From the NCBI GenBank assembly GCA_032718475.1, contig JAUCBJ010002695.1, positions 17,905 through 81,904 on the forward strand: a stretch of DNA of 64,000 nt. The letters are read 5' to 3'. The stretch's first letter is position 1. Each line of letters begins with the position of its first letter. Origin of the DNA: Nemertoderma westbladi. Taxonomy: Eukaryota; Animalia; Xenacoelomorpha. Below, piece after piece: positions 2,780-46,200 of the stretch. The position numbers were made by a program, and so were the translations under genes. The notes beneath the pieces were generated by a model. The model had not been told where the DNA came from. It saw nothing but the letters and a program-made list of their open reading frames with translations, and did not search any database.

Positions 2780-3818
2780 GGTACTTCTACAGTATACCCC
2801 CACACCTTGATATATGTTTTATCACTTTCCTTTACTACCGCTATGGTGACTAGATTCTAGAACACAATTATTGTGGCAAAATGTCTTTAGGCAAGTTAAA
2901 TTTGCGTGAATTGGTGCTACGTACAAGTACTGTAGCTGATTCATTACAGCTATGCTGAGACAATTTTCTGTTGACAACCAGCAGTACTTGTTTGTGTGGT
3001 AGTGATATGAAACTTAGGGCGACGAAGCGCTGCAAGGATGGAGAAATTTGGCGTTGCCCACGTCCCTGCATGAAGGAGAGCACAATAAGGAAGGGTTCTT
3101 TTTTCGCTGGAAGTAATTTACCAATAAGTACACTTCTTGAATTCTCGTACTATTGGGCCTATGAAGAAGTGTCCATGGAAAAGGCGAGGCGGGAATTCGG
3201 AATGAGCGACCACACCACTGTTGATTGGAAGAACTTTCATCGAGATATTTGTGCACAGTCGTTATTAAACAATTCAGCAAAAATTGGTGGTAGTGGGCAC
3301 ATTGTGGAGGTGGATGAGAGCCTTTTTGTTCGCAGGAAACACAATGTTGGACGCGAAGTGGGCCAGGAATGGGTGTTCGGAGGCATTGATGTGAGTACAA
3401 GGGCATGTTTTTTGGTACAAGTTGCCTGCCGTAATGCTGACACTTTGCTCCCTATTATACAAGAGTACATTCTCCCAGATACATTAATCAGGTCCGATCT
3501 CTGGAAGGCATACAATGGGATTGAAAATCTTCCTGAGGGCTATTCACACGAAACCGTGAATCATAGTAAGAACTTTGTTGACCCAGAGAGTTGAGCCCAC
3601 ACGCAGAATATCGACAACTTGTGGATGCGTGCCAAACGCAGGAACAAGAGAGAGTGTGTAACTCATAGGTCCTTGTTACGCACATATTTCATTGAATTCA
3701 TGTGGCGAGAATCAAAGAGAAAGGAAGAAAACAAATTTGAACATTTAATAAATGACATAGTACAATTGTATAAATGTTAAGAAATTGAGAGGGTGTGGGG
3801 GTATACTGCAGAAGTACC
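2780..3818 (+). mobile_element. Merlin (IS1595/ISXO2-like) DNA transposon, complete ends
   Basis: 27-bp TIRs GGTACTTCTACAGTATACCCCCACACC with one mismatch, and an 8-bp TSD CTTTTTTT (2772-2779 and 3819-3826). Confidence 0.95.
2881..3780 (+). pseudogene. Merlin/ISXO2-like DDE transposase, 299 codons, two in-frame TGA stops (2956, 3592)
   Basis: N-terminal Zn-ribbon Cys pairs, then VEVDES, WVFGG, IRSDLWKAY, VNHSKNFVDP, HTQNIDNLW and EFMWR, all in one frame. Confidence 0.93.
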
Positions 3819-4530
3819 CTTTTTTTTAAGTGTTCTAGAACATATCGCGTATTTATTTTTGTAAAAAGTAATGTTCTAGAACAAATATTTTTTGTTCTAG
3901 AACATTCGAAATAAATGTTATTTTGTGGTGTATTTTTATTTGATTAGTAAGTGTTAAAAACAATTACAGTACTAACAACTACAAATTTCATTGTAGCTAG
4001 TGATTTTTATTAAAAATGTGATACAAAGATAACAGAATAAAAAATTTCCAAATTTAACAAATTAGCTAGTTTTTTGTTTTTTTTTTGTTCTGGAACAAAT
4101 AATATTTATTCTAGAACATTTTTTTAAAAAAAGGAAACAAAAACTTGCTGGTTTAAAAATTTTATATAACTTACAATAAAAAATTAAAAAGATAAGCAAA
4201 TTAGCTAGTTTTTTTCTATTTTATGTTCTAGAACAAAAAATATTTGTTCTAGAACTATATTTTTATATTATATGAATAGCTTATATGTTTAAGAACATTT
4301 TTTTTTTAAGTAACAACAACTAGCTAGTACAGTATAAAAAATTTGATGGGGAGGGGGGTGTACGCTAGTACAGTATAAAAAATTTGATGGGGGGGTGGGG
4401 GGGTGTACACAAAACACAATAACATAAATCATTGTTACCATGTAAAAAATGGAAACAAAAAATATTTTTGTTCATAATGGTATGCATCAGTTTAAACCTG
4501 AAATATCAATGTTTTCACATTTATTTATAA

Positions 4531-4791: not shown

Positions 4792-5536
4792 TTACAAAAA
4801 ATACTAGCTAGTAAAAACAACTAGCTACCATAAAAAACATATCTACTAATATTCTAGAACACAAAAAATTGCAGAATTTTTAGAAATTAAAAAAAAATGC
4901 TTATATAAAATAAATAATGTTTTGAAAAATTACTAGATAATGTTCTAGAACACAATATATTTTTGAAAAATGTTGCAATGAAGTCAGTGTGAAATTACTA
5001 TGCAGAAAGTACATAATTTCATTAATTAATATCAAAATATCAAATGCGACTGCTTACGGAACTCAATTTTATATACTATTTATTAAGGTACAACTAATGT
5101 ACTACCGGTATCTACTAAAAGGTACTACAGTATATAGTGTTTTTTTTACTAGCTAGCTAGTACGGTACCGGTATATTTAGAAATTGTAAAAACATCCTGT
5201 TAACCAACCAAAAAAAAAAAACGAAAAAACACTAGCTACCTTAATAAATAATATCTACTAATGTTCTAGAGCACCTACGAATAACAAAAATCCCCAAAAA
5301 AATAAATATTTTGAAAATCTCAAAAAATACTAGCTAATAAAGAAAACACTAGCTACCATAAAAAAAAAATATCAAGTATTGTTCCAGAACATTCACCAAT
5401 GTCAATAAAGACAACAATAACCACAATAAAATCACAAAGGTTCTTACAAATTATTGCTGTTTACATACTTTACTAATACCGGTTATAGGCCTACAGTACA
5501 TACTATACTAGTACCCAGTGAGCTCTAGCCATAAAA

Positions 5537-7958
5537 ATGCATTCTTTGATTTTCATATGTTTCTTTCTCAGCAACGGCGTTTTGGGCACTGTGATTGGTG
5601 AAAAACGAGTCTGTGACTCATTAGAAAGTAAATCAACTTGCGATGATGGATTGTACTGCTCTACAGATCTAAGTCACTTCGAAAATGAACCTTTTTGCAT
5701 CTGCTATGAATCCAAAGTGAAGACTGACGATGGTGACTGCATTGAATGCTCTACCGATGTACGATGTGGTAACGGAGCACTCTGTATTAAAGGAAGTTGT
5801 CATTGTAAAGATGGTTTAGTGATAAATAAATCATCCTTGCGCAGAGGTCGTTTAGGCTGCCAACTACCGAAATATGTTTCTGAATGTGGAGATGTGAGTC
5901 AGTTAACAAAGAAAGGAAAATTAAGGAGAAAATTTTGTAAGTGCAAGGATGCAACTTTGACTATGGTCTGGAACAATTACACATTATTTTGGGAATGCAA
6001 GGGACACTCGCCCTATCCAGTTGTGAGTACTACTGGAAGTAACGGTGATAAATACCTGCAACATGGCGAGGGCGGTTGTAATCAAGTTACCAGACACAAA
6101 GATGATCCAATATGTGACGTTGCCAAAGGCTTAAAGTGTTTAGAAGGCATACGGTTTGAAGATACGGATTTGTTTAAGAAAATGTGCATTTGTTCTGATT
6201 CCAAAGTGACGAATGACGACGGCCAATGTGTTAAATGCTCCGAAGATGACCTTTGTGGGAACGGAGCAGACTGTATTAATGGAAGTTGTCAATGTAAAGA
6301 TGGTCTAGTGCTCGATGAAATATCTTTAGGCATTGGTACACCTTGGGTACCCATAGTTTGACCAATTTTTTTCATAGGAAAACGGCTGTTATCATGAGGT
6401 TTTTTCTATAACAAATATTTGATCTTCTGACAGTAGGATGATAGCTAATAATTTTGATTTTGTGTTAGCTAGTACTTTTTTTAGCTAGTGAAAAAATTTA
6501 ACTATAATTTTTCTTGTGAAAATGGCTATTATCATGAGTTTTCTTGTTCTGGAATAAATATTTTACCTTCTGTCCGTAAGATGGTAGCTACTAGCTAGTA
6601 ATTTTGATTTTGTGTTAGCTAGTAGGCCTACTTTTTATAAGATATTAAAAAAGTAAAACTTATTTAGAACATCAAACACAGCTATGTTTTGTGTGTTATA
6701 AGTTCTAGATTCAAAATACTGCAGTTTATAAGAGGTCAAATAATTTAAAATGAAGATTTTTTTATAAGGGTTGTACAATTTAACTTTTTTTCCAAAAAAA
6801 ATGTTCTAGAATAAAGTGTTCTAGAACAAAAATATTTATCAAAATTGATATCTAACACGTCTTCTATAACATTTATAAAAAAAGGTTGAAAAAACAAGCT
6901 AGTATAAAAAATTTAAAAATACCGTTTGCCATGATTGGGGGCGTATCTATAATTATATAAATAATTAAAAATGTGTTCTAGAACAAAACTATTTAACAAA
7001 ATTGAAAGCCATCTTCTATAAAATTTATATAAAAAAATAACAAAAACTAGCTAGTATAAAAAATCTGGTCAATGGGTACCCAAGGTGTACCAACGCCCAT
7101 CGTTTAGTTGGAAAAGGAATAGGGTGTAAACAAGCCAATAACAGTGGTGAGTGTGGAGCAGATGAAAAAGAGTTCAGTATGACTACCAAAGCCCCAAAAA
7201 AGTGCGAATGCAAAGTCCAAAGTAAAATCATGACGTGGAATATGGACAAATTATTTTGGGAATGTAAATTGAACTTGACAGCAATTGGAACAACAGAAGG
7301 CACTGATGTTGGAACAGTTCCAGGTGACCTGTATCCCAGGCAATATGGTGAAACATGTGATGAATTGTCAAATATATGCGATTTTGATAAAGGCTTAATT
7401 TGCTACAAAGATGAAAGAGACAGATTTATTGGGGAAGAAAAGTCAATGTGTATATGTAATAAACCGATGATTTGGACCGGATTTAAATGCAAAAAATGTA
7501 ATAGTGATACAGATTGCGGAAATCATGCAACATGCATTGGTAACACAACTTGTCACTGTAAAAAGGGAAAAGTATTTCATAAAGCTTCTATTCACATTCA
7601 GCATCGAAGTTTCGGATGCAAGAATGCTGAAGATGTTTCTGAATGCGGTGATGAAAATCAATTCACATTAAGATCACAGCCATCAATGTGTGAGTGCTCA
7701 AATCCATCCATGAATATGTCCTGGAACAAGTACGCATTAACTTGGCAATGCCAAGAGCCAGCTGCCTATCAAACAACCACTGTTAATGAAGAAGTAGAAG
7801 AAGAAGAAGAAGATGATGATATGGGTGACAATGATTATTCAGAAAATGAATTACAGGATCCTCTTGAGAAAAATCCAGCAGATGATGCATTTACCGTTAC
7901 CAAGTTATCGGACTGCATAATTATTATTCTAGCAAACATTGTCTCCAAATACATTTAG
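5537..7958 (+). CDS. Secreted or GPI-anchored Cys-rich protein with three ~150-aa EGF/EB-like repeat modules; two segments 5537-6329 and 7108-7958, ~547 aa if joined
   Basis: Signal peptide MHSLIFICFFLSNGVLG; three repeats of C..D..CGN.A.CI.G.C.CK.G…ECG…C.C…M.WN…L.W.C; acidic stretch; hydrophobic C-terminus. Module 2 is split by an insertion. Confidence 0.8.
6329..7097. mobile_element. MITE inserted in the Cys-rich gene; possible transposon-derived intron
   Basis: GGCATTGGTACACCTTGGGTACCCAT at 6329 is inverted at 7072-7097 with one mismatch. The flanks TATCTTTA and CATCGTTTA resemble a diverged TSD. Confidence 0.85.
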
Positions 7959-9282: not shown

Positions 9283-9349
9283 TGGCCAATATGGGGCTCG
9301 AACCCATGACATTCGCGATATTAGCACGACGCTCTAACCAACTGAGCTA
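9283..9349 (-). pseudogene. tRNA-Ile(AAT) lacking its 5' acceptor strand
   Basis: TAGCTCAGTTGGTTAGAGCG-TCGTG-CTAATAT-CGCGA-ATGTC-ATGGGTTCGAGCCCCAT-ATTGGCCA, with a T5 run downstream. The 7 nt upstream (CCAGCCC) cannot pair with ATTGGCC. Confidence 0.85.
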
Positions 9350-9479
9350 GGGCTGGGGTAAGATAGCCTGATCGGGGGGGGGGGGGGGAAATTAACAACA
9401 AATGAGGAAAATGAGGGGTAAGAGAGAAGGGGAAAGAAACGGAAGGAAAAAAAGGAAAATAAGGGAAAGGAAGGAAAGA

Positions 9480-35797: not shown

Positions 35798-35916
35798 ATT
35801 GATTAATGAAAGACTGTGTAGCCATAGGTTGTAACAGTAATCCTGTACTGATAACCTGTGTACTGTACTGACTTTGATTTATCTGTATATGATATACCTG
35901 ACTTTGGATCCGGAGG

Positions 35917-37326
35917 ATGGTTACACCTCAAACAAGCGATTCTTCCGGCGAAGAATCAGATTCTATAGCATTAATATCGGATCGCGATACCGGTACGGGT
36001 ACGGCAGATACAACGGCCTCGGCGACGAACACATCCGATATCGAATTACTGCGCGCAGTGTCGAGAGGCAAGCAGAAAACTAAATCCCCAAAGAAACGAC
36101 CTATAACCAAGGCGATTCGGAATGACACCAAAGCCGCAACTGGCACCGGACGGGGGCCTACACTGGCACTGACGGATAAACGGAAATTATCCCGAGTTAT
36201 CAAGAAACCGAATGAATCCCCAACAATCCGCAACAGTTCCCAGAGGCCTACTACTACCGTGACCGGATGCATGCCGTTGGCTTCACCTAAAACTCACACT
36301 CCGACCTCGGAGCTTGAGCAGTCTGGAGCAACGGCCAACGATACAGGGAACGATTCGAGTAGTATTTGCCCTCACTGTAATAAGAAAGTTGGGTCAACAA
36401 ACCCATTACGCTGTGATATTTGCGTAAAACTGATTCATTGTTCTTGTTTGAATATAACCGAGATTGAAGCTACTCTGATATCAAAGTGCAAAAACTGCAA
36501 AATAATGTGCAACCTGTGCGACTCCGACGGGAAATCGTTCAGTCGTCACTCAACAAGTTTGGCGGAAGAGGTTAAACAGGTGGTTGTTTCACAGATGACA
36601 GGGTTTAGAGACAGTCTGGATACATTGCGAAAGGAGGTCCGCGAGCTAAAAACTGGTGGACGGGCCGACAATCCCGAGTTCGAGGAGGTCTCGGACTTGG
36701 ACACGGACGAGGAGGATGGAGTCGAGTGGATTATCCCGAAGGATAAACGGCGCTCAAAAACAAAAAGGAAGAAAGCCCCAACACCATTCGCACAAGTAGT
36801 GCAGGATTCGGTACGAGAGGCTTTAGAAATACAGACGAAACATGATCAAGTTAAGAGAGAAGTTATAGTCTCCTGATTGGAGGAATCTAAATCCCCGAAG
36901 GATGAAAGGAAGACTATCTCAGATATCTGTACCGTGGCAGGTGTAAGCCCAAATACAGTTACAGACATAGTTCGCCTTGGTCGACCGGTGGATAAAAGGA
37001 ACAGGTTGTTAAAATTGACCTTCACTACGGAACAAGATGCCAGAGACTTTCGGGTAGGTTTCAATGATTCGAAAAGCTCGGAGACTCCATCCATATACGA
37101 TAAACTTACGGTACGCCCGAGCCGGACAGAGGAAACCGAACGCCATATCCGTTCTCAACGGAAGATAGTGAGTCGAATGAACAAAGAGATAAAAGATAGC
37201 AATGAGGACAATACTACTTCCAGCTACAGCATCCGCCCCGATGGTACGATATGGAAGTTCGTAAAGCAGGACGATGGTTACTGGAGACGTGATCGCTCTT
37301 GGAAACAGGAGCGGGAAAACGAGTAA
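35917..37326 (+). pseudogene. LINE ORF1 with a PHD finger, coiled coil and RRM-like region; TGA at 36874
   Basis: CPHC…CDIC…IHCSC…CNLC; VIVS*LEES; IVRLGR…RLLKLTF. Confidence 0.88.
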
Positions 37327-41519: not shown

Positions 41520-44500
41520 AGGGAGAATTATTGTACATGTTGAACAGTTTGTATATCCACTTTATTTGGGTGTTTCCATCTGAAAGAGTCTGAAGGTTCT
41601 GCAGAACATCTGCATAAGTGTTCCATGTCAATCTTTCAAATTTTCATCTCATTATTTAAACCCAGACAAATTGCAACAAACCAATTGCGTCCAATTGGCT
41701 CATCCCAAATAACAATCTTTATGTTATTTATCTGTACTTCTCCCTGTGGATCAGCATCAGGCACAGGTTGAGGAACTGCTGCATCCGAATGTAAGTCTGT
41801 ATCAAGCTGGTTGATGACACTGAACAAGGCTATCAAATCTTCTTCATAGAGAATTGGGTATTATTCATCTTTGGGTTCTACTGGGTCATTTGCGATGATT
41901 ATTGCTAAGTGCGCTTTCATTTCAGTGATGGATATCTGGTTCAACTTGTAGAATCTTGGCCTTCGTTGATAATCATTAGGGGAGGAATGTCTTCGGTATG
42001 AGATCTCAGTCCTCAATACAGTTTTTAATTGTTCATCATTGTTCTTATATTTCAATATACAATTCTCGAGTTCCTCAATATAGGTAAAAGGACCACCCCA
42101 AGATTTACATCGACGTAACTGGTTGGTAGCATATTCAATAGCAGTTCTCTCTTTATTTTTTGCTTCCAGAAGTTTTTCTTTACGAACATAATCTTGATCC
42201 TTTATCCAAGCCTTTTCACGATCATCGAGAACCTGTAATTGAACAAAAAATAGAAGAATATTGGAAATGTTTTTAAGGTATAATGTACTTCATGGACATA
42301 AGATACCGGTGCTGTAGACAAGTTGGATCACACATGCATATATATATATATATGTATTTCCAATGGCTAATGCAAGAAGTAATCTTAATAATAATAACAC
42401 TCACCCTTGTAATATGTTTAGTGGCTCTTTCAACTCCGGTTATTGAAGATGCCTTGAATAAAGTCATTTCATATTTTATTCCCTTTGCAGTGAAGTGTCG
42501 TGAGGAGCAACTAGCAGATCTTTTGCAGAGTCAATCAAACTGAGAAAGGTCCCGCTCTGCCTCTAAGTTGTTTACTGAAAGTCCATCTAACTCTGATGGA
42601 GATAAATCACTAAGCACTGTTGCTCTCGGCTGTCGATATGGTTCTGAGAAACCATATTCTCTACCACGTTGAGTTTGCAGATCTTTTGCTGCTTGTTGGC
42701 AAAACAGGTTTATAAAGAGTAGAACCAGATCATTAGGCTTCTTGATGATGAATGAATAGTCAACCATATAGTTTATGAGAGTGTCCATAAACGAGTGTAC
42801 ATTAACAAACGACTAATCAAATCTACTGGAAGCATATTACCACAACTCAACCGCCCACATGAGAACAGGCATAAGGGTGTACACTGAACCTATCAAACTC
42901 GGCAAAGGAATACGGCAAGGAGGCATACTATCTGCCTGGCTCTTAAATTTCTACTTACAAGACCTCTTCGAGACCCTAGGAGAATCTGGGCTAGGACTAC
43001 ATCTCGGCACAGAATCTTACCCGGCCCTTGGTTACGCCGACGACCTATTGTTGCTAGCAAACCTTAAGGATGATCTCCAACAACAAATCGACATATGCAC
43101 CACGTTCTTTGCCAGAAATGGCCTCATTATAAACACTAAAAAATCGCATTACGTAAGATGTACCGGTACACAACCAAAAACAACACCAATTGAAGGTACG
43201 CAACCAAAAACAACACCAATTGAAGGCTACACCATACAAGTAGGATCAGTTTTCCTACGCGAGGAGGCCAGCTGTAAATACCTAGGTTTACCACTTCCAG
43301 GTGCACCGCAAACGATCAGAGACCACATAACCAAGCGCTGCTGGTGGATCGTATCAAGGACGCGATCACGGGGCCTAACAGCCCACGACGTACCTCTACA
43401 AATCACCAAAAATATCTGGAACACAATCTGCCTCCCGTCTATCGCATATGGTATTGCAAATATGGATGATGCCTCTGTGACCCAACTATCAATAGTAATG
43501 CGAAAGGCGATGAGATCGATCATTGGCGTGGGGAACTACGTCTCAAACAACACCCTACATAATCTGTTGCGATGCGACGACCTGGAATCAATCATCGCAC
43601 ACAGCAGATGTAGACTCCTGTACAGCGCCGTAAACTCAGGAAACATAAAAATTGCACATCTCTACACAACACTGCTTAGCCAACACCTATGCTATACCTG
43701 CACAGAACCAACTTTTGTCGAATACTCCATTGCGAGTTGGAGGAGTAACCTACCCACCCTACGCAGCATCGTAACAGCCTCCTACAACATAAAACTGGTG
43801 ATCAAGGGCTCACGAAAACACTGCAAGCCCATCCTGAGCACCAAGGACTGCTTCAACACGTGGTATCTCGAAAGTAACCTAAATATTCCAAACGCAAACT
43901 ACTCCATAAAGAACCAATGCATACGAGACTACTACAAGCTGCCGACACTCGACGCAAACAACCAAACAGGTTTCACACGGACTCACGTTCAACTCCACCA
44001 CATAACAAGCACACAAATCACACGCATTTCCGATCATGACAAATACTATTTGATTTCCTAATTCCCACCTCCCTATAGTCTATAATTATATTCATTTGTT
44101 TTGGTGCATACAAACAACACTTGTGCCTTCAACAACCCTGTGTGTAATAGTTACACCCGTACACCTTATAGACACTACCATCAGACATCGTATACCCACT
44201 AATTATACAGGTAACATGTGACTACAATGTAATGTAACCAATAGCATTGTTAATTTTGATTTTGTCGATTGTGTTCTGTTCCGTTTTTACTTGACCGACC
44301 ATTTTATACAATAATAGCCGCCGGGGCCTCAAGCCGGTAGGTAATATAATTAAAAAAATAGTTGCAAGCTTTTAAATCTTTATACAGTTTGGGCAGGAAC
44401 TGCACCAAGTCGTTCTGTGTTGACTTTTCAACCATATTCAAAAAGGGCATTGTCACCTTCATTGTGAACAATGCCAAGCTTAGCAATTCTGCTTCAATCA

Positions 44501-46200
44501 ATGGGTGCTCTACATAAAGCTTACAAGTCTGAACCAGGAAATTCTTTCGTGTAGTATTATTCAACAACTCACGGATATCATCAAGATGGTAAATAATTGC
44601 AGCTGCTGTATATCCTAGCTTTGCAAATCTTCTTTCAGTATAGATACTGAACTTCTTTGAACGATTACTTTGGATAACCTGAAGATCAAATTCCTCCCAC
44701 AAAGATGATTGTTGACCATCATTTGTCACAAGTTTCTGGATGGCTACTATGACAGCTAATGCAACACTTTTTTTTTCTGGGATGAAGGATTTTAGTACTG
44801 GAAGCCGAGATAACAAAGCCTGCTTCAGATTCGCCTTGTTTTCGAGCTCTAAAATAACTTTTAAGTTTCCTCGATCAAAAACCTCACATGTATGTGAAAC
44901 ACACAGCAATTGTAATGGTATATGATGTGTAAGCAATGTTTGTGCAACCATCTCTGCAACATTCAATTTTTTGGAGACACTGTCTGTCATTAGGGCATTC
45001 ATTTTTTTCCATAGAGCTACTGCAGTTGACTCTCCTGCAATTGCCAAGCGATTAAGAACTTCAACAAGCAGTGTTGTAATTGATTCTCTTGTTTCCCGAC
45101 CCAGAGTATGCGGACGAACTCTAAATGATTTCCCATTAGATAGTTTCATTATGACTGCGGGCCAGTCTCCTTCAATTCGTCTCCTTTTTGTTGTATCAAA
45201 GTGTAGTGTGATTTTGTCACCCTCTGAAGCATCAAGAATTCCAAGAGCTGCATTTCTCTCCTCCTGAATTGCCAACAAGTGTTTTTGGTTATCAATTACT
45301 CTTATACTGGGTAGCACATTGGCATACCGCAAATAATCAGATGCTTTGCGTGGAAGCGACTTTTCGGGCTCAAGTCCAGGCTCATGATCACCTTCATTTG
45401 ATCCATCATCTGCAGTCAGCTGGTATCTATGGCCAAATATAATTTCTGTTGTAGCTTGAAAAGCACGGCAACTTTGTTCAATAGTAATGGCTGCCCTAGC
45501 ACATGCAGCAGCCAAACCTGTCTTTACACTGGGAAGGAAGTTTCGAAACCCCGATCTCAACTGGAACATGGATGGGTTTAGTACATAATCAGTTTGTGTA
45601 TAGGCATTTATGGTAGGTTTACTATCACGTACTAAACCAGAACGATTGAGTGATTGGTCAAGTCTGACATTGCTCAATATGGGACTACTCAAAACTAAAT
45701 CCTCTTCATCGAATTCTTCAGCTTCCATTTCAGCTGCTGCCTGCTTAGCAATAGCTTCTGCTGCACGTTTCTCTTCATATTCTTTGTCTAACTTGTCACA
45801 CAATGCCATTCGACGGGGCCCCATCTGATCAAAATAAAATTCTCGTTCTGGTCCATTTTTCAGGATCTACATTTTTACCTAGCAGATCTAAGAGCTTTTT
45901 GTGGTCCCCTTTCCAAATTGTAAGATTTTGCCTCCTTGAACCAGTTTTCTTGCACTGAACCTGAGTTCGATATGTTTTCAAAAATCCATCCAACTTGTAT
46001 CTGATGTTCCGGATAGTCATGACTGTCCCTTCACCAAAGGCCTTTTGCCACTGGAAATTCAGAGCCTTTGCACAGTTCATAATCATGCTGCTTTTGACTC
46101 CCATACGTTGGGGCATGTTCTATAATAGCCATAACACAATCTGACACCATTGGTAAATAGTCACCAAAGACAAAGAGAATCACATCTGGCATGGTTAGAA
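41520..46200 (-). pseudogene. hAT-superfamily (hATx-like) transposase, split by a LINE fragment; coding pieces ~46200-44360 and ~42790-41520
   Basis: LHFDTT…MTDS…LLCVSH (CxxH)…RRFAKLG…PFLNMVE, then RGREYGF…NNLEAER after the insertion. Candidate GGGGTAG termini near 40663 and 46545. Confidence 0.75.
42790..44358 (+). mobile_element. 5'-truncated non-LTR retrotransposon (RT C-terminal half, ORF 42859-44061; clade uncertain, RTE-X-like)
   Basis: GIRQGGILS; LGYADDL; KYLG; 3' UTR ending in a CCGG…CCGG hairpin and an A-rich tail. Confidence 0.85.

Follow-up and report, generated by a model that had tools for sequence, protein, structure and literature searches.

The 64,000-nucleotide stretch of Nemertoderma westbladi DNA analysed here (the window) contains a cysteine-rich animal gene whose coding sequence is interrupted by an ordinary high-copy MITE, and the insert is likely to be a single transposon-derived candidate spliceosomal intron. 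We put the probability of this reading at about 0.52. These odds are a judgement: the prior for such an event in animals is low, it is raised by the rarity of the insertion geometry and by the absence of disabling changes, and it is lowered by a weak donor and by a repeat adjoining the start codon.

According to the mechanism which we propose, the MITE would have inserted into the coding sequence of this gene. Its TIR begins GGC; the first G (6329) would stay in the mRNA and stand in for the displaced host G7107, the GC which follows it would serve as the donor, and the acceptor AG would be formed where the TSD ends in A and the host sequence resumes with G, the resulting mRNA regaining its pre-insertion length. 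Alternative donors might be the in-phase GT6336, which would add two residues, or GT6294, which would remove 12 residues with the loss of one cysteine. The insertion would have survived through landing at a rare site from which it could be removed exactly, and not through any intron-making specialisation of its family. A preliminary description of this DNA had proposed that the TIR gives the donor and the TSD the acceptor; that geometry is real, except that only half of the AG comes from the TSD, the other half being a host base. The features are collected in Table 1.

Table 1. The insert, its target site and the interrupted gene (positions in the window)
Feature	Position	Strand	Basis or remark
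Non-autonomous TIR DNA transposon (MITE), 769 bp	6329..7097	.	TIRs, contig depth, termini of other copies
Left TIR; carries GC 6330 (candidate donor) and GT 6336 (alternative donor)	6329..6354	+	
Right TIR	7072..7097	-	
Left copy of inferred 8-bp TSD (coding)	6321..6328	+	aligns best, with a gap, to 7098-7106
Right copy of the TSD, one base longer, with host G7107	7098..7107	+	supplies candidate acceptor AG 7106-7107
Candidate (predicted) GC-AG intron, 778 nt, phase 1	6330..7107	+	
Host gene, 5' coding segment	5537..6328	+	open frame; Pfam EB module; hydrophobic N-terminus
Host gene, 3' coding segment	7108..7958	+	open frame, module alignment, hydropathy

The element and its target site

Contigs were taken from three public DNA runs belonging to two studies, X1 and X3 from one sample and X2 from another study. 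The X1 contigs are identical to the window, and X1 is possibly its source. Runs X4 and X6 provided no contigs on 5480-6371 and X5 only pieces of repeats; these were not counted as absence.

The preliminary description had placed a TIR element in a host-like gene, and it does lie there, with its ends now redrawn: other copies depart from the window sequence just before 6329 (at least 19 contigs in X1 and at least 16 in X3) and since they stop at this position the element comprises 6329-7097, has GG termini and counts G6329 as the first base of its TIR. The arms of the TIR are 26 bp long and match at 25 of 26 bases, a single mismatch which hardly warrants the earlier term "diverged". An 18-nt core of the TIR occurs twice in the window as against 0.02 times expected from shuffles. 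The G+C content of the element is 27%, compared with 38% in the coding segments; its interior contains subterminal direct repeats spaced 140-157 bp, and no ORF of 100 aa was found within its 769 bp. Only one copy of this MITE is present in the window, and the summed contig depth over the insert is hundreds of times that of the single-copy flanks in X1, X2 and X3. By its TIRs, its short non-coding length and its many copies with a common terminus the element is a MITE. Set against the majority of other copies, the window copy deviates at 7 or more interior positions, and it is therefore not brand new. A search of metagenomes with the TIR (two scans, giving 0 and 1 match) produced one sequence, L001, which has neither the terminus nor the interior and was judged to be a chance match.

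The TTTAG repeat noticed earlier at the two boundaries does not in itself make up the TSD. An eroded TSD of 8 bp, 6321-6328 against 7098-7106, fits best; it scores 6.5 and requires an extra right-hand base as well as the base which the second allele carries at 6321. The runner-up, a TSD of 7 bp combined with a GGG terminus, scores 5.5; the GGG terminus is disfavoured in that it requires an extra change and most right ends among the contigs listed stop at GCC. A tandem duplication as the origin of the intron was rejected on the basis of the TIRs and the other copies.

The host gene

Two reading frames, 5522-6361 and 7041-7958, bracket an AT-rich stretch. The 5' coding segment specifies a predicted signal peptide, module 1 and the first half of module 2, and together with the retained G6329 would constitute exon 1; the 3' segment specifies the remainder of module 2, module 3, an acidic stalk, a hydrophobic tail and the stop codon. 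In the restored frame the three modules contain 16 cysteines each and are 39-43% identical to one another. Hydropathy analysis reveals a hydrophobic start and, at the other end, an acidic stretch followed by the hydrophobic tail, which suggests that the product is a membrane- or GPI-anchored surface protein. The gene is cysteine-rich and would be of an animal cell-surface type.

By Pfam, the 5' part contains an EB module (E=1.8e-05; score 25.2 bits, cut-off 24.3), and the best match in the Atlas is a cluster of EB-domain proteins (0.88), which we regard as a lead only. No homologue was recovered for the 3' segment at E≤0.001 among 577 candidates, nor for the module alignment at E≤0.01 among 1117 candidates. 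The sole match among 1.84 billion representatives was rejected since it does not have the cysteine pattern. With no homologue recovered from these protein collections, the three-module protein is a candidate for a lineage-specific surface protein. Contig depth is flat across both coding segments and each run gives a single contig, so that no close paralogue was detected among these contigs at 80-85% likeness. Pfam analysis of 46 frames revealed no other host gene in the window. Two long open frames of 520 (44304-45866) and 324 codons (35902-36876), without a Pfam match, lie amid transposon debris.

Splice geometry

The removal of 6330-7107 from the host gene leaves an unbroken frame of 547 codons and a module 2 with 17 residues between the flanking cysteines, exactly the number found in module 1. 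With GT6336 as the donor the frame has 549 codons and the spacing becomes 19 residues, which is the number in module 3. The preliminary description had predicted both outcomes, the agreement in length with module 1 and the in-phase GT costing only two additional amino acids, and had reported that the flanking coding segments are free of stops; all of this is borne out. It had also cautioned that restoration of the frame is partly expected from the geometry of the TSD, which is correct: an in-frame outcome of one kind or another is available at 17-31% of CDS sites. Exact restoration, which requires an AG straddling the insertion point, is possible at 105 of 1635 CDS positions (6.4%), and at 34 (2.1%) where a pyrimidine must precede the AG (YAG). 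The element is nearly coextensive with the candidate intron, as is expected of an Introner.

Of the 16 AGs in 6990-7200, the one preceded by the stretch richest in pyrimidines ends at 7107, and X2's second allele has the same candidate acceptor. What speaks against an intron is the donor, which is weak, is without a +5G and would lie within a predicted hairpin. GC 6330 matches five of 11 U1 positions (this and the following donors being scored against the consensus), and of GC sites taken at random from the window 18% do as well or better; natural GC donors are described in PMC3167603 as having, on average, a stronger surrounding consensus. GT6336 likewise scores 5 and the in-phase exonic GT6294 scores 7. 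The GT at 6347 was rejected as a donor because none of the AGs at 7050-7134 is in frame with it. In the predicted RNA fold the two TIRs are paired with each other (z=-7.8; 20 shuffles), an arrangement which would place the donor within a stem but bring the two intron ends close to one another.

A weak donor located in a hairpin speaks at the same time for a young pseudogene, the most serious competing explanation, although a distinctly less probable one. Here the insertion would have knocked the gene out, translation ending at the stop codon at 6359-6361, and the null allele would have spread too recently for decay to set in; the exact geometry would then be a 2-6% coincidence singled out by the scan. 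That such geometry is rare by chance argues against a pseudogene, and that exon insertions inactivate genes far oftener than they form introns, as stated in PMC11282704, argues for one, as do the transposon-packed surroundings of the gene and the repeat adjoining its ATG.

Alleles and coding differences

In X1, X2 and X3 the contigs reach the TIRs from the 5' as well as from the 3' coding segment without a break. A second allele, which also carries the insertion, is seen in X2 and X3. A comparison with alleles lacking the insert had been recommended; neither an empty nor a joined form of the insertion site occurs among the contigs listed from these three runs. The alleles differ at 6321 and 6326, both within the left copy of the TSD, and the insertion would therefore be older than the local divergence of the alleles. 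The contigs are bubble-collapsed, which makes the phase of the alleles uncertain, and differences located at a distance may be older than the insertion and have been brought in by recombination.

Within the coding sequence the alleles differ at 27 positions (8 synonymous, 19 non-synonymous). The second allele has no gaps in its CDS, although indels are present in both flanks, and there are no stops, frameshifts or losses of cysteine among the 27 differences, one cysteine codon having been hit silently. A neutral simulation with a matched mutation spectrum gives a probability of about 0.03 for the absence of stops and cysteine losses (0.018 with a uniform spectrum), the criterion having been chosen post hoc; for the 3' segment alone the probability is 0.33. 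This record argues against a pseudogene. The preponderance of non-synonymous differences, on the other hand, suits one: the preliminary description had offered a silent gene with neutral dN/dS as a refutation of its idea, and pN/pS is 0.57, a synonymous excess which is not significant (p=0.14, or p=0.28 with the matched mutation spectrum). Divergence is also lower in the 3' coding segment (7 differences in 851 positions) than in the adjacent 225-bp 3' flank (11 and a gap; Fisher p=0.0002), which again argues against a pseudogene; synonymous sites in this segment are low as well (2/158, p=0.08), and therefore the genealogy may explain part of the contrast. A recently gained intron and a knockout, the two alternatives originally offered, were the right ones to consider, and the allele evidence leans towards a host gene that is still functional.

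A third explanation, which we consider improbable, is that the gene is used in a leaky or truncated manner. The insert would mostly be retained in the transcript, or polyadenylation would take place inside it, giving a secreted product of 274 residues, and an anchored full-length form would arise through minor splicing. The 5' frame does have its signal peptide and continues to the stop at 6359-6361, AATAAA is present at 6553 and 6810, and the weak donor also fits; such a product would, however, be cut in the middle of the cysteine pattern of module 2, and the 3' segment is apparently at least as conserved as the 5' segment.

Other copies of the element

The term Introner-like had been applied to this insert. 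It fits the single insertion; among the element's other copies the corresponding geometry was not enriched. Among the contig ends listed, an A precedes the TIR in about 5 of 24 (X1) and about 5 of 21 (X3). These values are compatible with the background share of A, 0.30 (p=0.38 for X1 and 0.64 for X3), and incompatible with the share of approximately 0.65 which would be expected if all copies had the intron geometry (p=1e-5 and 1e-4, respectively). The count, which sets contigs starting at 6329 against those reaching 6328 or beyond, is a crude one taken within one sample; it excludes four contigs of X3 with loose ends at 6330-6331 and another 11, with a variant TIR, whose loose ends are at 6337-6338. 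Several contigs seem to share one repeated flank, which would place the true share of A nearer to the background. The family looks like an ordinary MITE family and not an Introner family, which by the definition in 10.1101/2022.06.06.494994 needs four or more similar introns located in unrelated genes; a small intron-forming subset could escape the count.

That the TIR family makes introns repeatedly, the window copy being one of many, is consequently very unlikely in the face of this background level of A, even though a G|GC donor and an in-phase GT are available in either orientation of the TIR, the geometry equals that of Micromonas IE1 as described in PMC11282704, and the copy number is high. 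Just as doubtful is the more specific proposal of a Merlin-type, GGC-ended MITE family which makes GC-AG introns, some of its exon insertions being tracelessly spliced; this superfamily would be new to intron gain.

Superfamily

The sequence of the element accommodates assignment to either Merlin or Mutator. It agrees with Merlin in its terminal GG, TIR length and best-fit TSD length, as these are defined in PMC8101967 (terminal GG, TIR of 24-462 bp, TSD of 8-9 bp), and this profile is also shared by some Mutator elements. The supplement of PMC12130899 assigns to Mutator an introner family of Amoebophrya whose termini are GG/CC and whose TSD is 8-9 bp. The insert has no transposase. The main text of PMC12130899 does not name Merlin; the word occurs three times in the family table, two of these in one row which is finally classed as unknown. 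A literature search returned nothing linking Merlin with introners, and the matches to Merlin together with intron gain were titled on other topics.

The window's one Merlin element (2780-3818) differs from the MITE in its TIR, the common part being the terminal GG alone, and was for that reason rejected as the mobilising partner of the MITE. It possesses 27-bp TIRs starting with GG, identical 8-bp TSDs and an ISXO2-like transposase frame containing two stops. The repeat which hosts this Merlin shares the subterminal motifs of the MITE, and the similarity of the MITE interior to 2606-2703 and 3816-4345 was set aside as a similarity to this repeat.

Surroundings of the gene

The rest of the window consists of pieces of Merlin, LTR and LINE elements, BEL/Pao elements among them. 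The presence of BEL/Pao and of the EB module suggests an invertebrate animal. Long inverted arms at 658-890 and 5300-5530 belong to a larger, foldback-like repeat around nested elements. Repeat sequence extends to approximately 22 nt from the ATG of the host gene; other copies of the larger repeat match to about 5515, and a putative GCC terminus is located at 5530, 6 nt before the ATG and with a TAG just inside. The larger repeat may sit in an intron of the 5' UTR or may have cut off the promoter. Nested within it is a second MITE (1327-2529) of about 1.2 kb, with TIRs of approximately 30 bp and a 4-bp TSD. Positions 1-655 are occupied by a tandem array of a 24-bp unit which resembles the reverse complement of 5462-5487, and the array probably represents a subterminal repeat that has expanded in the larger element. 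A tRNA-like fragment was noticed by eye on the minus strand at 9290-9355; ARAGORN finds no tRNA in the window.

Relation to known introners and significance

The closest parallel is Introner IE1 of Micromonas pusilla, in the accounts given in PMC11282704 and 10.1101/2022.06.06.494994: the donor, GC or GT, is provided by the TIR, the duplicated target is co-opted for the acceptor AG and the length of the mRNA is unchanged, all as would be the case here. IE1 has a 3-bp TSD and thousands of intron copies, compared with approximately 8 bp and one candidate in the present instance, and, unlike in IE1, the acceptor AG here would be half TSD and half host flank, in a candidate known from DNA alone. 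Among animals, introners have been described in copepods and in a sea urchin (PMC12130899; 10.1101/2022.06.06.494994). Family 1 of the latter, Strongylocentrotus purpuratus, resembles our case in its animal host and in elements of about 900-950 bp, and includes RNA-supported examples; it differs in comprising four introns, in being classed as non-LTR/unknown and in co-opting both splice sites (supplement of PMC12130899; the comparison is by description). Single transposon-derived introns are described from numerous eukaryotes (PMC11282704). These are of the same kind, an ordinary element having become an intron, whereas ours is a candidate read from the genome.

To our knowledge, clean intron gains by DNA transposons are scarce in animals. 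Should the gene prove silent, the insertion would be an ordinary knockout. If the intron is real, it would show whether an animal can use a weak GC donor enclosed in the hairpin of a TIR, and it would mean that an ordinary MITE can give rise to an intron when its target happens to be a permissive site, the step which is thought to precede true Introner families.
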